Assembly (NCBI GenBank): GCA_027923505.1
Contig: BROI01000035.1
Location: forward strand, 186,001 to 248,439
DNA length: 62,439 nucleotides
DNA from: Mayamaea pseudoterrestris
Lineage: Eukaryota
Direction: 5' to 3'
Part shown: positions 47,854 through 56,706 of the stretch, in pieces
Layout: the number at the start of each line of letters is the position of its first letter
Numbering within the stretch: position 1 is the stretch's first letter
Translations under genes and position numbers: made by a program
The notes under the pieces: model-generated
What the model saw: only the letters and a program-made list of their open reading frames with translations
What the model was told of the DNA's origin: nothing
Database searches by the model: none

Positions 47854-48450
47854 ATGAAGGAAGACTTGATGGAAATGTCTCGCCGCGAGCGCGTCATGCA
47901 GCTGCATGAGAGTCCCTTGTTCATGTCGAATGAATGGGCTATTCAAACAGTCCTTGCAGGAGTCGCCATCACCATCATTGGTTTGCTCATCCTCTACTCG
48001 ACCTTTTCGGCTCTGGTAGAACGCACGACTGTATCAAGCACTCCAGTATTGACCAAGCGTCGATTGGCTTATCAAGCGACGAATCTACTGGTGAATTGCT
48101 TCCTCGGCTTGTCGGGAATATACTGCGAGTTCTTTGTCAAGCCAAGCGACACGCAGCTCCAAGTCGAGCAAGTCATTACAAACTACAATCACTTTCAATT
48201 CTTTGGAAACTTTCAACTCGGATATCAACTTTGGGCCATTCCAGTCGGAATTTGGTGGGTCTCAGAGTCTACTCCCATGCTCATTCATCATTGTGCTACC
48301 ATTCTAGTGGCCACCATGAGCTCCTTCTGCACCAACTCGTTGTTCTACGGACTCTCTCATTGAGATTACAGCGTTCCACTTTCAGTCATGAACACTTTCA
48401 ACCATCCGAGAAACATCCGCTGGTATACTTGGCTGTGCGATTGGTATTTG
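47854..48450 (+). pseudogene. TLC (TRAM/LAG1/CLN8) domain membrane protein, frameshifted and cut off at the LTR element
   Basis: TM helices, GYQLWAIPVG and MLIHH motif. The frame breaks near 48340-48400, and the continuation HPLVYLAVRLVF ends at TGTTGG (48451). Confidence 0.65.
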
Positions 48451-48636
48451 TGTTGGAGAACTGACCGAACTAAGTAGACAGAACAGAGTCAATAAAACCA
48501 CTTTACTTATTTTCTCCAAGAAGTGATCGTCCTCGATCCACTCCTTCGGTTGCCGCTTACCGCGCTTACTTAAATGTGACCGTCTTCGTGACGTCACCGC
48601 TGCCGCTTCGGTTTGGGTTCTCATCCATGCTCAACA
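48451..48636 (-). repeat. 3' LTR (186 bp)
   Basis: The sense strand begins TGTTGAGC and ends TCTCCAACA. 48479-48636 is identical to 53495-53652. The pol ORF runs into it. Confidence 0.85.
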
Positions 48637-51600
48637 CACTCCTTTGGGCCGAGTAGTACTTACTGCTCGAGGCCAGATTCATAACCAGGTTGCGGAGCTT
48701 GCCAAACTGGGCTCCCTGCAATGGTTTCGTGAAGAAATCCGCGACCATGTCTCCGGTCGGACAATGCTCAATGTTGACTTCACCAGCTGCCACGCGATCT
48801 TTCACAAAGAAGTACCGAACATTCATGTGTCGCGTGCGCTTTGTACTTGAGCTTCTGCCATTCTTTTCCAACAGCATTGAACTCATATTGTCTTGATACA
48901 ATTTCGTGTCTTTGACCCCGAAACCTTGCGCCTTCAGAAAATATCCTGTCCACAGCAACTGCGGTAGCACATCATGAACTCCCACAACTTCGCTCTCCGT
49001 CGAGCTTCTTGTTACCAACTTCTGTTTAGCCGACGTACTGTACACTGATCCTTGGCCAAGTGTCATTGTTCCACCAGTGTGACCCTTCATGTCTGGGTGC
49101 ACCGCGTACGACGCATCCACCCACCACTGGACTATCCCGGACTGGTCCGCCTTCAGCGTCAACACCATGTCCACGCTTCCGCGTAAATATTTAATCACTC
49201 TTGCAGCCTTCTTATAGTCGTCTTCGTCAGGCTGCTGCAGCCTCGTGCTCAAGAAAGAAATCGCTGTGCGAATATCCGGTCGCGCTCGCTGACTCAGATA
49301 CAGACACTGCATCACAATCGTCACAAAAATCTGCTTCTTCGCTTCGCTCAACATGACAGGATTTTCCGATATCTGAAACAAGTGACTGGCTGCCGGAGTA
49401 GCTGCCGTTCCATCCATGTCGTCTGGCGCATGATGCAGGATGTTCTTCACATAGTCAACCATGTTGATTGCTACTTCTCCAGGCTTAGTATAGTCCAATA
49501 CCATGCCGAGGTAGTCGTGCACTTTTCCGCGTGACTTATTCATTGGAGTCTCCTTGCCAAACTCCTCATCCATCTGCGCGATGAACTCATCCACTACGCT
49601 CACGTCGACGTGCGAAATCTTCAAATCGTCCACGTGCCATCCCACGGTGATTTGCTTCCCATTGACAATCTTGTTGCACACACACGGATCGTACGGGTTC
49701 TTCTCGAAGCCCCACTCAAGCAATTTTGCGGACAACTTCTCCCAGAATAGTCGCGCTGCTCGAAGCGTACCATAAAGCGCCATGAGTAATTCAACATACA
49801 TGACTTTCTCGCCATTCTCCATTGTGACGCAAGGCTCGTACATCTCGCGATCAATTTCCAACAGTAGCTCCACCATCTTCCCAGTGAAACGAACGTGCAC
49901 CAACTCATCCATTTCCGCTTGCATGAAAGCACCCGGTACATCAACCACAGCAACCTCGCGCCCTTCCATAGCGTCAATGATAGCTGTCAGAAAGATGGCC
50001 TCTGTCGCTATCGTTGGAGATGCTGCGTCTTCCTTTGCAGTGTATGCTCGTTGCTTGCGTCCATCCGCGCATCCGCGTCCCTTCACAGTCCCGCATCTCT
50101 TGCGCTTGAGAAACATCAAATACGCCAGAGCGTCCTTGCGCTGCTGCGGAGTCAGAGTGCATTGGGGGACTGCCTTCATGACGTGCCTGTCGTGTAGCTG
50201 CTGCATTTCCTTGCGCACTGCCTCCACTCCAGCATCGCCAAAAGCCTTTAAACCTTGTCGCATATTCATCTGTGCCGTGACGAGTGGCTCCGACACTTCC
50301 TCTGCAGCGTCGAGCGTGAACAAATGAGCGAACGAGCGAGGTTTGCGCGCACGCAGGCCATACCGACCAGTGCGTGGGCCGCCAGCGCGCATCGAAATCC
50401 TCTTCGTCTGCAGCAGCTGGCACTCCTTCAATTTCGCCTTCATCGGGCACTCCTTCAATTTCGCCATCATCCACGGCTGGCGCGTCGTCAAGTTCGCCGT
50501 CAATGGCCTCACCATCCTCGTCGTTCGGCACTCCTTCGATTGCGCCGTCAGCACCATCGTCGTCGTCGTCGTCGTCATCGGTCGCATTCACTCCTTCGCT
50601 TCCGCCGGCAGAGTCGTCGTCACCGCGAGAAGCGTCGTCATCATAATCAGAGTCATCATCATCCTCGGCGTCATCTTCGTGCCACATGACTGGCTCAGCA
50701 GCCTCCGCAACACGGTGGCGGTCCATGAACACGATGCCCGGATTGGCCTTCTGTTGACGAGCGAGACGATGCACGCGCTCAATGACATCATCAGGCATGG
50801 GCAAAGGCGTAGCGTGCCCACGATTCAGAACTTTGCCCGAAGACAAACTGAGGAAATAAAACCCACCCTGCACATTACCAGTCGGGCGCAGAGCCAGCGC
50901 ACCGATCGTGCGCGCCTGCATGTCATTGCTGTGCGACTCATGCGTTTGCACATACTGACCAAATTCATACTTGCAATGCCGATTAAAGTCAACTGTCTGA
51001 CCAGTCACAATAGTGCGTGGACTGAGATCCTTCGAAATGCCACGCTCGTTCGGAAACGCATTCAACCAAAACACGGCAGACTTCGTCATTTCGATAACCA
51101 AGCGTGCCGGCACGTGCTTAAATGGCAACGTGTTGTATGTCGCGCGCACCCGTTCTTTCACGACACGGATAAAACGTTCAATTTCGCCAACGTGTTCATC
51201 CTCAGATGTCGCATTGAGCGCCACTCCGAGATCAGCCAACGCGCCAAGCATTGGAGCGAACTCCCCATCCATCAGAGCCGCGACGACACGGAACCCACCG
51301 CGTGCGTAAATCTTCAACACAGACTCGATTGCCTTCAACATAACCGGAAGCGTACGGTTTTGAATCACCTCAACCGTAGCAAAACGAATGCTGCGGGAGA
51401 ACGTCACCAACATAGGGACTTTGTTGATATACATGATGTCAGCACAAAGAGTAACGTCTCGATAGCGACTCATGATAGCCGGTGGAAGCTGCTCAACAAT
51501 CGCAGGCTTCACCAGATGCGACGCGCGACGCGTCGTCTTTCCTTTTAACGAGCCAACATCTGGTCCAAAGATGTGCTCAGCAGCCAGGATGTCGGCCTTC

Positions 51601-53414
51601 GTCACAGGACAGTTCGGCAACTGATTGCTAGTAACGATGCGCAGGTAATCCTTGAGGCTTGGCCGTCCAATTTTGATTTGCAGTTCCCTAGCTCTAACAG
51701 CGCGTAAATAGTCATCATTGGTGTAGTTAGTACGGTTATCGTCTACCGTAGTCAACATCGCCACTCCATCCTTGACATCGCTGCGCTTGCCCTTCGAAAA
51801 GCTCTCGCAAACATACAGCCCAGAGTCAGTCTCGACAAACTCTCGCTGCTTACCATCCGGCTTCTCCACAACGAACATTGGACGATCCACGCCGTGCATG
51901 AGATACTCCACGGTAAACTTCTTGCGGACTTGCGCCAAACTCAAAATGTTCGCCAGTCCCTGCGGATACCACCACACCGGACCATAGCCCTCCAGGTCGC
52001 CCATCATGTTCGTCCTTACTGTACCAGCGTTGCACTTGATCACCATCCACGTTGGCACCGGGCGAATGTTCGTCAGCATCTTGGCGTTGCAGAACAGATC
52101 CACTGTCGACTGATTGTCCAAGAGCACAGCCTTCTTCGAGATGTTCACCTTCGGCGGCTGCGCGAACATGTATCCGACCTCATCGTCGTCATCGCTTTCT
52201 TCCTCGCTACCCAGCGTGAAGTGCTGCGCCCCACTAGCCTCTGCAGCCGGCGCACTCTCCGTAGACTCCGTTCTCGTAGGACAGTCTCGCTGCACATGAC
52301 CAACCTGTTGACAGGTCCAGCATCTGGGAGGGTCACGCGCTGTACCAGTCGTGTGAAACGCCACGCCCTCGTTCGTTGGCAACGTGGCTTCTCCATCCGC
52401 ATGCTCACGACGCTGCATGATGTTGTATGCATCGTGGATCGTCAACGGGAAGTTGTCGTGCCCGTCGAGGTAGCAGTTGCGCAAGTGCTTGCAATACCCA
52501 GCGTATTCGCCCGTTGCGCCACGCACGAAAAGCATCGCAAGCTCGAGCTCTTCGGCGGCCTTGATATCCTCCTTGTTCGCCTTGTTACGATTGTCATCCT
52601 TGGCAATGTTCAACGCCACAATCTCGTTGTGCATCGTGACGCCAACCGCCTTCGCCACGTCTGCCAGCGTGACCATGCTTTCGTAATATTTCTGCAGGCT
52701 TTCGCGCGCTCCTTGAGTACGTCCGAACAACTCAGCTTGAATGTCCACGACTTGATCCACAAGTTTGCAGCGCCCTTCGTACGTATGCGAGATCTCCTTG
52801 ATAATCGCCAGCAACTTAATTCCGTCCGTGTCCTCCTCGGCGTCTCGGAACTTGGCGTGCGACTTGACACGATCCTTCATACGCTCCGTGCATTGTCCAT
52901 GCAACACGGCGTAGAGACCAGCGAGGAAGTCGGAGTATACACGCACGCGCTCGACATGCTCTTTCTTGTCGGCCTTGTATTCCTCGAGCATTATGGACCA
53001 GTCCGAGTCCGTCGTGTCGGCATCCTTCGTTGGACGTGCAGGCTCGTCAGGAATCTCCAGTTCCACGTTGCGCATGCCCTTGAGCAGCTCCTTGGTATAT
53101 TTCTTGTAGGAGCGCCCGACGAAAGTGATGATCTCGTTCGTCGTACGGATGAATCCATCGGGATCGCGCGAACCGTTATAGTCGTAGATGAATCCAGCGA
53201 GCGTCGGCTCGCTTCCTTGGAAATTTCCACTCGGCGCACGACTCGGTCCGTTGAGTCTGTTACCATTGCCTTGATTCCCGGAACGATTCCCAGCACGATT
53301 CCCACGACGATAATGACGGTTGCGTCGGTTTCCTTCGCTTGCTGGCGGAGCGGGAGGTGCACCTCCACCGCTCGACGCCGCTCCTGTCGTCGGAGTATTG
53401 CTCGTCGAAGACAT
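48566..53414 (-). CDS. Gag-Pol polyprotein with one frameshift near 50380
   Basis: Zn knuckle CWTCQQVGHVQRDC (52281-52322), protease LLDNQST, integrase (ADIMYI, MDGEF, EHVGEIERFIRVVKER), RT (VDVPGAF, LYG, WHVDDL) and RNase H (VDASYA, QDN, ADFFTK). The two ORFs join as DAR/x/GPRTGRYGLR if one base is removed. Confidence 0.92.
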
Positions 53415-53441
53415 GTCTTTTCACTCGCTTCTTGGAGAAAA

Positions 53442-53652
53442 TGTTGGATCTAGAATATATCTTGCGCGCCCTTGAAGCGACACTAATGATTAAGCAGAAC
53501 AGAGTCAATAAAACCACTTTACTTATTTTCTCCAAGAAGTGATCGTCCTCGATCCACTCCTTCGGTTGCCGCTTACCGCGCTTACTTAAATGTGACCGTC
53601 TTCGTGACGTCACCGCTGCCGCTTCGGTTTGGGTTCTCATCCATGCTCAACA
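53442..53652 (-). repeat. 5' LTR (about 211 bp if the inner end is the GATCCAACA at 53442)
   Basis: The sense strand begins TGTTGAGC, has the 158-bp shared core, then 53 unique nt ending TCCAACA. Confidence 0.75.
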
Positions 53653-53869
53653 GAGTCATCGATGGGTGCTCGCGGCGGCAACATCCGAATTCTTCGATGC
53701 TTCCACATCAATTCGGTAGTGCCTACAGCACCCATATAAGAATTTACAGCCTGTCATTTACTTCCTGGAGCATTTCACTCGTCAAATCATTTGGAAGATC
53801 ACATTAACGTCCAGCAAGAATGGCATGGTCATGGTGTCATTTCGACATGGTTTAAAACCGCTGCGTTGA

Positions 53870-56706
53870 CGATGTTAAGTGGTGGTACGACGCCACCACG
53901 TCATGTCAGAATTCCATGGAACGCTTTCGCGATCCAGAAAGTGCCACACCATCATCAAGCAACTCCGAAGGTCGTCGAAGAAGAGAGGATCATAACCACC
54001 ATTGAACGCTGGTGAAAGCGAAATTGAAAGTAGAGCGCGGAAGGAGAGACGTGCAGAGCCTTTATACACCGCCACTATAATCAATACAGTGCAGTTAAGC
54101 ATGGCGGCCATTGCAGCAGTCAAAGCAGCATCTATTTCCAATTCTACAGGCTCCATCCTTCAAAGTTCCTACCATTACACCAAATCTATCATTTCTTCCG
54201 TCTGCAACTTTGTCTTGCCCAAATGGACGACGCATTACTACAATGACATGCCAACCCTCGGAGACCTTTGGCATCAGTATATGGAAGGTGAAAACAAGAC
54301 GTCAATTGCTGAAGTCTGGTTGAAGCATTTAGACACCAATGGCGATGGAACCGTCAGTCGGAATGAGCTTATTACCAATATGAATGACATGCTGCAGCAA
54401 TACACGAATTCGAGTCGAGCGAAGGAGTCATGGGCCAAGTGGTTTAGCCGCGAATGGCCGCTGATGGATTGGAAGGTCGGAGTTTTCTTATGGAAGAGTT
54501 TTGGAGGAATTCTCGTTGTCTTGGCTATTTGCTCCGTCACGCCGGGGCGATTGCATGGCATTAGCGCTAAAGTTTTTGCGGTGGCCGCTGCTGGGGCTCG
54601 TTTACTTTTTAATTTGGGTCGAATTGTTGGTGTAACGTCGTTATTCGAATTGGAATCATGTGCGCCGAATATCTCATTGCACGTCCCAAGCATCGCAAAC
54701 TACGCAAACTCATGAAAGCTGCCAGCTATGACGAGTGGCAAATAAACGCCAAGAAGCTCGACGCATCGCAGCATCGTCAAAAGTGGCTGGATCGCGTTGA
54801 CGATGAAACTTCCCACGAGTACAATTGGGGATTTATATTGGAGTTGGTTAAGGATTTGAGGCTGGCGCGAGAGAATAACGATTCCATTCTCGCCTTGGCC
54901 GTTTTGCAGCAATGCACACGCAAAAATGTTGGCGGCATCATGTCGGAAGACTTGTTTAGCTATTCGAATACTGGGGAACCAAAGACGATTGTCAGAAAGT
55001 TTGTCAGCGAAGTAGTGGAGACCCTGCACTGGATCACCGATGGCGCAAGAAGTGTCGAGCAAACCACGAGAGATAATGCAGACATGTCCAGTCGCGAGTT
55101 ACTGGACTATGAGCAGCTTCTCCAAAGCAAAGTGCGCGACGAAAAACCAAGCTTTTTGGTTCGTTGATTGATGCGACGATTCACGACCCGCGTGACATCA
55201 ACGGCGAATACAACGAAAATGGTGACCATTACGATGCGAATGGGCATGGCAGCAGCAGCGGTCATTTAGGGAGGACTTGGCGCCCAATTCAAATGGCGAT
55301 TCTAAACTATGACAGTAATTTCAATAGTAAACCCTTGCCAGTTTTTCATCGAGGACAAGTTCTCATGTTTCTTAAGCGAGCGAGGGGCAGCCTATGGAAG
55401 AACCGCATTTTGCATGTCGGGTGGGGCCATGCTCGTACGTTGTTCAAGAAGAGAATTAAATTGATTGTATTGTATCGATTTCTCAACTGCTCTTTGTCCT
55501 CGTCCGCTTTCGCAGGGTTTATACCACTTCGGAGTCATTTCGGCGCTCCTCGAGGCAGTGTGCTTGCCTCGAATTATCAGCGGCACGTCGGCAGGCAGCG
55601 TCATTGGGGCTATTATATGCACGCGAACCGACGAGGAGCTGAAACGAGACCTGCAGCCAGGCATACTGTCGCAAAAGCTTTGCTGCTTTCGTCGTCCGTG
55701 GAAGGATCGAATCAAGAGCGTATTGCGTAATGGCTGCATGTTTGACGTTGATGAGTGGATGGAACTTATACAATGGTTTTCGCAAGGATCAACAACATTT
55801 TTACGAAGCCATCAGAAGACGGGACGTATTTTTTGCATCACGCTGTCGTCCACGTCCAAAAAGAGTCCACCGGTGCTACTTAATTACCTTACGGCGCCAA
55901 CCGTGACGATTGCCTCGGCAGTGATTGCATCGTCTGCTGTTCCGTGTTTCGTTCCGCCAGTGCGCTTGCAAGTAAACCTTGAAGATGGGTCCGTGCGCGC
56001 AATCAAGGTGGCGAGAAGGAGCAGGCGTTTTGGGATGGTTCGATTCAGCAGGATATTCCGACCCAAGGACTCAGTGGAATGTTAAACTGTCAGTTTTCAT
56101 TGCGTCACAATGTAATCCGCATATCATTCCGTTCTTTTCTAATAGCAAAGGCGGCGTTGGTAGGCCAAGTCGTTGGTCGTCGGGAAAGCAAGAGACGTCT
56201 TACCGGGGAGGTTTTCTTACTGAGCGCACTGGGGATGTATCTGAAGACGGACATGAAGGCGAAAATGTCGTTTCTTAATCAAATGGACGCTGCGGTAGGA
56301 CCGGTGAAAACAATGTTTGTTCAACGCCTAGGCACCTACAATTGTGCCTTCGGTAAAGGCCGATGGATTATACAAAGGTTATTCACGGACCCTAAGGAGG
56401 CCGACTTGGATCACTGCTTTCAAGCTGAGCTGTAGCAGCATATGGGCACATCCCAATGATTAAACTTCACTACATGATTGCGGATGCAATAGAGATGCGT
56501 CGCTCAACTGGAAAATAGGAAGACGGCAAGTCGACGGCCGGAGCCTCGTGCACACCGCTGCGAAAGATCGGATTCTGGTTCCGCGAGCGACTGGGCGGAC
56601 ACTGCTTTCACGGCATTGCAAGCAGTTGCCGATGACGAGGAAGATATTTGATACGCACACGCTGCTTTCTTTCTTAAGCTTCAGTCCTACCTACATCCTA
56701 CAGTAG
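53870..56706 (+). pseudogene. Patatin-like triacylglycerol lipase (SDP1/TGL-type) with an EF-hand; multiply frameshifted, boundaries approximate
   Basis: Fragments include DTNGDGTVSRNEL, AASYDEWQINAKKLD, GLYHFGVISALLE..LPRIISGTSAGS (GxSxG), LLNYLTAPTVTIASAVIASSAVP and FIASQCNPHIIPFF, with a probable intron near 55436-55515. This may be an intact gene with sequence errors. Confidence 0.8.

Follow-up and report, generated by a model that had tools for sequence, protein, structure and literature searches.

A predicted Tf1-like self-primer in a diatom Copia retrotransposon, with covarying counterparts in metagenomic relatives

How does an LTR retrotransposon prime minus-strand DNA synthesis when no tRNA-type binding site follows its 5′ LTR? 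The question is raised by an element on the minus strand of the window, by which we mean the whole 62,439-nt stretch of DNA analysed here. In the sense orientation, the sequence TTTTCTCC.. stands directly after the ..CCAACA that closes the 5′ LTR, and no TGG is found there. This place is occupied by one arm of a perfect inverted repeat of 15 nt, whose two reverse-complementary copies, CTTCTTGGAGAAAAT at 53539-53525 inside the LTR and ATTTTCTCCAAGAAG at 53442-53428 across its end, are separated by 82 nt. The 5′ arm lies in the context ..GACGATCA|CTTCTTGGAGAAAAT.. and adjoins an initiator-like TCA motif (53540..53542, minus strand), read as ATCA|CTTC with its A at 53540; the 3′ arm lies in the context ..GATCCAAC|ATTTTCTCCAAGAAG|CGAGTGAAAAGACATG, after which the gag ATG follows at 53414. 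The original prediction had described both the 15-nt complement and the lack of a TGG-type tRNA site inside the 5′ LTR end, and both descriptions hold: every coordinate is right and the pairing is perfect. Between 53720 and 53380 there is no other inverted repeat of at least 9 nt, and one 8-mer accompanies the 15-nt pair, which is the longest of three inverted repeats of at least 12 nt (gap 25-280) in the entire window. When the RNA is folded from 53540, the 15-bp stem closes the whole stretch (-31.8 kcal/mol; z-score -2.0).

These positions can be read as the parts of a self-priming element. The predicted primer-binding site, TTTTCTCCAAGAAG, would comprise the 14 nt at 53428..53441 on the minus strand, beginning right after the LTR end and ending 13 nt before the gag ATG. 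Its partner, the predicted self-primer (53525..53539, minus strand), would pair with it through 53539-53526, and T53525 would pair with the last base of the LTR. From the predicted fold and the limits of the repeat, the intervening 53443..53524 (minus strand) would be the rest of R together with U5, looped out by the stem. The class of self-primed LTR retrotransposons was defined on Tf1 by a site that adjoins the LTR and is perfectly complementary to a segment within it, in the place of a tRNA-type site, and this set of features is present here.

The element itself is a Ty1/copia-type LTR retrotransposon. Two overlapping frames, 53414-49974 and 50587-48566, lie between the LTR repeats, both on the minus strand. 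The upstream one, a gag-protease-integrase frame (49974..53414; 1146 codons in the list of open reading frames), carries a zinc knuckle at 52278-52325 (residues 364-379; Pfam zf-CCHC, E 2e-5). The downstream one (48566..50587) encodes reverse transcriptase and RNase H, and its match to Pfam RVT_2 (PF07727) at 49427-50098, with an E-value of 4.5e-17 and above the curated cut-off, identifies a Copia-type enzyme. Searching the upstream frame for the Pfam rve domain gave no match even at E-values up to 1, and a profile search of PDB sequences returned zinc-knuckle and capsid matches only. The fold settles the question: an AlphaFold2 model of this frame, built with 24 aligned relatives (mean pLDDT 64.7), is well folded at about residues 70-335, 430-536 and 557-900, and Foldseek ranks retroviral integrases highest against it (PFV, RSV and HIV; E about 2e-6, probability 1.00). 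Judged by the secondary structure of the model, the integrase-like fold covers roughly residues 645-887, and the modelled structure thus places integrase upstream of reverse transcriptase. Integrase before reverse transcriptase is the Copia order. Two further Ty1/copia features, the CCHC zinc knuckle of Gag and a polypurine tract (AAAGGAGTG, 48637..48645, minus strand) directly before the 3′ LTR, are both present, and the order of Tf1/sushi elements of the Ty3/gypsy group, a gypsy-type reverse transcriptase followed by integrase, is not what we see, the reverse transcriptase being of the RVT_2 type and the modelled integrase lying upstream of it. The closest protein (98% identity) carries the source name Mayamaea pseudoterrestris and others carry that of Nitzschia sp., so that the host is a diatom. 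Two details of the ends may be added. The pol frame enters the 3′ LTR 69-71 nt before its stop codon (48566-48636), with U3 encoding the end of the protein. U3 also holds a perfect palindrome of the CRE/bZIP type, TGACGTCA, at 53606-53613; the predicted RNA start lies about 66-73 nt downstream of it.

Where the LTR ends is central to this reading, and the window copy alone cannot fix it, because its two LTRs share only 158 nt. These (53652-53495 and 48636-48479) are 100% identical and form the sole such repeat of this copy in the window. The 5′ LTR (53442..53652, minus strand; 211 nt, TGTTG..CAACA) has its outer edge at 53652 from the repeat and from reads, contigs of other copies in public runs leaving the window sequence at 53653 and 48637, and its inner edge at 53442 from relatives. 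The 3′ LTR (48479..48636, minus strand) is represented by its first 158 nt only, that is, U3 and the start of R. Beyond the shared part the two sides differ: 53 nt (53494-53443) lead to CCAACA on the 5′ side, and 28 nt (48478-48451) lead to TCCAACA on the 3′ side, past which the DNA is host-like. The stretch 53494-53443 is missing from the 3′ LTR, and the 53 nt that self-primed strong-stop DNA would be expected to supply are accordingly lacking in this copy's own 3′ LTR. The 28-nt tail may be divergent U5 or host DNA. In a local alignment of the two tails, the score was reached by 384 of 2000 shuffles, and in an end-anchored global alignment by 5 of 2000, the latter with a 28-nt limit that was picked after CAACA had been seen. 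The tail (48478-48451) could be the product of recombination between two elements, of a deletion into host DNA, or of divergence within U5. Contigs of four public runs gave no coverage of 48200-48478.

Other marks of decay surround this copy. No 5-bp target-site duplication is found under either reading of the LTR end, the flanks being GACTC on one side and TCTAC or CAAAT on the other. At 50381..50383 (minus strand) the window has three letters, and all four of these runs have two. By frame arithmetic, removal of one letter would fuse the two frames into a single frame of about 1615 codons, and relatives encode single proteins of 1457-1797 residues. The window copy is thus frameshifted, or the assembly is wrong at this place. 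As it stands in the window, the copy is defective, with a frameshift, a truncated or divergent 3′ LTR and no target-site duplication. In run X1, the word depth was 23.3 for element contigs versus 2 for the one flank contig, which suggests several copies of the element, the depth itself being no copy count. In run X4, one contig joins the 5′ flank (53653-53900) to 53 other letters in place of the LTR; it could be an empty-site allele or another locus. An 18-nt piece from its loose end at 53653 was not found in the window even when as many as 2 mismatches were permitted, and it gave no help in locating the missing target duplication.

For the LTR end, the decisive evidence comes from relatives. 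Alignment of the upstream frame with 23 homologues led to 78 loci on metagenome contigs, at 27-57% protein identity. In these loci and the window element, 327,217 nt altogether, a scan for inverted repeats that match perfectly over at least 13 nt (gap 25-280) found 38, versus 0-4 in each of 20 dinucleotide shuffles. One layout is shared by 28 of them, which belong to 25 loci and the window element, with L018 and L030 represented twice each; the remaining ten, in L016, L019, L054 and L060, are long palindromes or repeats of another kind. In this common layout, the 3′ arm begins at or one base past ..AACA in 27 of 28 sites (0.5 expected), and the 5′ arm begins at or one base past TCA in 22 of 28 (about 1.1 expected), the motif being CTCA in most sites. 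The perfect complements are 13-17 nt long, with the partner arm inside the LTR, 36-205 nt upstream. The spacing between the A of (C)TCA and the base opposite the first post-LTR base in the duplex is 15 nt in 20 of 27 sites, 16 nt in six and 14 nt in one. Beyond the ends of the duplex the pairing falls away: at the three positions on either side, Watson-Crick pairs occur at only 18/81 and 13/81, which is chance level. For 25 of 27 sites, the predicted minimum-energy structure contains the duplex.

What is conserved is the pairing, not the sequence. The arms fall into 25 distinct sequences with a median pairwise identity of 0.375 and a GC content of 0-33%, and none of the 28 sites begins with TGG. 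Within a single locus, the tandem copies in L018, whose units are 94% alike, are distinguished by T>A in one arm and, compensating for it, A>T in the other. Two loci may serve as examples of the layout. L021, on a 20-kb contig, is a complete element with 282-nt LTRs that are 100% identical (TGTTGG..TTCAACA) and GGCGC as its 5-bp target duplication; the first 14 nt past its 5′ LTR are fully complementary to LTR positions 188-201. L035 has the same arrangement with 16 nt. Twelve loci include the first 100 Gag residues together with enough DNA upstream of them, and 11 of these carry the signature; the exception, L023, has 700 nt upstream of gag without a recognisable LTR end or complement, which makes it uninformative. 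Complements of only 8-11 nt were found in the right context in L017, L038, L039 and L061. Of 25 related loci that were examined, 11 (L001, L002, L004, L007, L009, L018, L029, L030, L031, L055 and L059) have AGGAG(T/C)G immediately upstream of the TGTTG that opens the LTR, as does the window element in its polypurine tract.

Some further structural observations concern these contigs. L018 (6259-6362 and 12717-12828) and L030 (3290-3427 and 9319-9456) contain tandem element-LTR-element arrays. In five other contigs (L002, L007, L039, L045 and L070), the first 99-189 nt recur at the far end, as would fit circular assembly paths or one-LTR circles. Long perfect palindromes with arms of 31-64 nt, unrelated to the binding-site layout, occur in L019 (3323-3673), L016 (3458-3751) and L054 (2358-2556); one arm of the L019 palindrome begins at GTCTCA, like the self-primer arms.

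The comparison bears on several points that the original prediction had put forward. Its placement of the LTR end at 53442 is proved by the relatives, with 27 of 28 sites having a complement that begins right at ..CAACA, the end of the LTR, and by the complete element in L021. Compensatory covariation in related elements, which it had named as a check, is strongly positive: the arms stay paired though their sequences vary, and the edges of the pairing coincide with the LTR end and the initiator-like motif. Its suggestion that this diatom Copia lineage may self-prime gains support from the same comparative evidence, that is, from 25 covarying arm sequences with edges at the LTR end and at TCA.

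We therefore favour, with a probability of roughly 0.8, the reading that this diatom Copia element primes minus-strand synthesis with the 5′ end of its own RNA in the manner of Tf1. Transcription would start at TCA|C in the 5′ LTR, on A53540 or C53539. The first ~15 nt of the RNA would then fold back onto the 14-nt site at 53441-53428, with which they are complementary and with which the predicted fold pairs them. By analogy with Tf1, the RNase H of the element would cut the RNA about 15 nt from its 5′ end, and the reverse transcriptase would extend the new 3′ end through U5 and R to yield strong-stop DNA. In the standard retroviral model the binding site is regenerated from the primer; plus-strand synthesis would, by that model, copy the primer back into the site in each cycle. 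Such copying would restore the full match between the arms in each family, irrespective of the sequence involved, and would account for families that are all perfectly paired though they differ from one another.

The predicted start can be narrowed to two adjacent bases. An Inr-like consensus, TCAH+1W, has been proposed for diatoms from genes of Phaeodactylum (PMC4686930), and the TCA|C at the arm edge fits it. Read in this way, transcription would start at C53539, the first paired base, and an animal-type initiator would instead place the start at A53540. The exact first nucleotide is uncertain, because the A of TCA is itself unpaired in 18 of 28 sites.

Two other roles for the site, and chance, have to be weighed against self-priming. 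The long-range stem might be an RNA structure with another task, such as packaging, dimerisation, translation control or protection of the 5′ end, with an unrecognised other primer serving reverse transcription. The window element lends this some plausibility, in that its stem closes the whole R-U5 region and stops 13 nt short of the gag ATG, and fungal GalEa Copia elements have, where a binding site would be expected, a conserved hairpin of unknown role (PMC5445492). A stem kept for its structure would not, however, need a fixed length of 15 nt from an initiator motif, nor, in 27 of 28 sites, a 3′ arm whose start falls on the first post-LTR or the last LTR base, the very position at which a minus-strand primer has to end, and there is no other candidate binding site after the LTR. 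It should also tolerate wobble pairs; our screen for perfect pairs was blind to these, and the choice of the 28 sites by at least 13 perfect pairs means that their absence is partly built in. On balance we hold a purely structural stem to be unlikely.

Priming at the site by a host tRNA, a half-tRNA or a tRNA fragment, with the match to the LTR being secondary, has a precedent in that half-tRNA priming is a known exception in Copia, by one half of tRNA-Met and one half of tRNA-Ile in plant lineages (PMC6317226). If one tRNA were shared, the site should be conserved, but the relatives show 25 different site sequences, each matching its own LTR, and tRNA priming is made improbable by the lack of any site that starts with TGG and by the GC content of 0-33%. 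The loci contain a single tRNA gene, for tRNA-Met, which in a by-eye comparison has no evident match to the site, and no tRNA gene was found within the window. We give this explanation very little weight. A chance match is the least credible of all, even though a repeat of at least 15 nt arose somewhere in 2 of 100 locally shuffled windows, since 25 independent loci show a match in this same position at the LTR end.

Self-priming by the RNA 5′ end thus remains the preferred reading, and known systems show what is shared and what is particular in it. To our knowledge, self-priming has been proved experimentally only in the Tf1 group of Ty3/gypsy. The Tf1 self-primer pairs over about 11 nt, compared with 13-17 nt, at a modal distance of 15 nt, in the elements described here. 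A tRNA site is lacking in Tf1 and Tf2 of Schizosaccharomyces pombe, in Tj1 of S. japonicus and in the Tf1/sushi group, and the site next to their 5′ LTR is complementary to the RNA 5′ end inside the LTR; priming in this group follows a cut of that duplex and is established for Tf1 and inferred for its Tf1/sushi relatives (PMC4600332). The window element shares this layout in its sequence, but it is not a member of that Ty3/gypsy group, having a Copia-type reverse transcriptase with integrase before it.

Within Copia, the original prediction went too far in holding self-priming to be undescribed. Neumann et al. 2019 predicted it from sequence for the plant Ty1/copia TAR lineage and cited an earlier proposal for Houba and Osr-1 (PMC6317226). 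These TAR elements, which include Houba and Osr-1, are likened to ours by description: they too are Copia elements predicted to self-prime, but their hosts are plants (PMC6317226). Diatom CoDi-like clades fall into Copia ‘branch 1’ together with Ty and GalEa (PMC5445492). The Conserved Hairpin Site of GalEa resembles the present case in being a conserved pairing at the expected place of a Copia element without a tRNA site, but it is a local palindrome for which no complement was found in U5 or R, whereas the partner here lies 36-205 nt upstream in the LTR (PMC5445492). The CoDi elements of diatoms are described as Copia elements of 5.2-8 kb with LTRs of 153-844 bp and TG/CA ends (Maumus et al. 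2009, PMC2806351). At about 5.2 kb, with an LTR of 211 nt and a diatom host, the window element lies within that description, and it is by description only that the two are likened (PMC2806351). The main text of the CoDi paper makes no mention of a tRNA or a primer-binding site (PMC2806351), and we found no description of self-priming in the literature on diatom LTR elements, the supplementary tables of the CoDi and plant papers lying outside this scope. A search of viral contigs with the reverse transcriptase protein found no relative. Self-priming is therefore not new for Copia as a whole; what appears new is a Tf1-like layout on a diatom Copia element with a predicted 15-nt primer.

Taking the relatives together, we lean towards a broader reading, in which the whole widespread clade of diatom-type Copia elements, present in many aquatic metagenomes, gave up tRNA priming in favour of a 15-nt self-primer taken from the RNA start, with the site rewritten in each cycle. 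A Copia clade with the same layout as Tf1, as the 25 covarying pairs and the fixed 15-nt spacing suggest, would mean that the mechanism is not tied to one superfamily, and the spacing makes a concrete prediction of the position at which RNase H cuts. There are practical consequences as well. Pipelines that keep only LTR candidates with a tRNA-type site, of which the LTRdigest filter used for Cyclotella cryptica is an example (PMC7466962), would discard such elements and undercount diatom Copia, and the two edges of the arms offer a way to read LTR ends and likely RNA starts from sequence. If the reading is true, Copia ‘branch 1’ would hold a second self-priming lineage, either independent of Tf1/sushi or ancestral to it, and the finding would be relevant to an old proposal of hairpin priming in the earliest LTR retrotransposons (PMC3601003).
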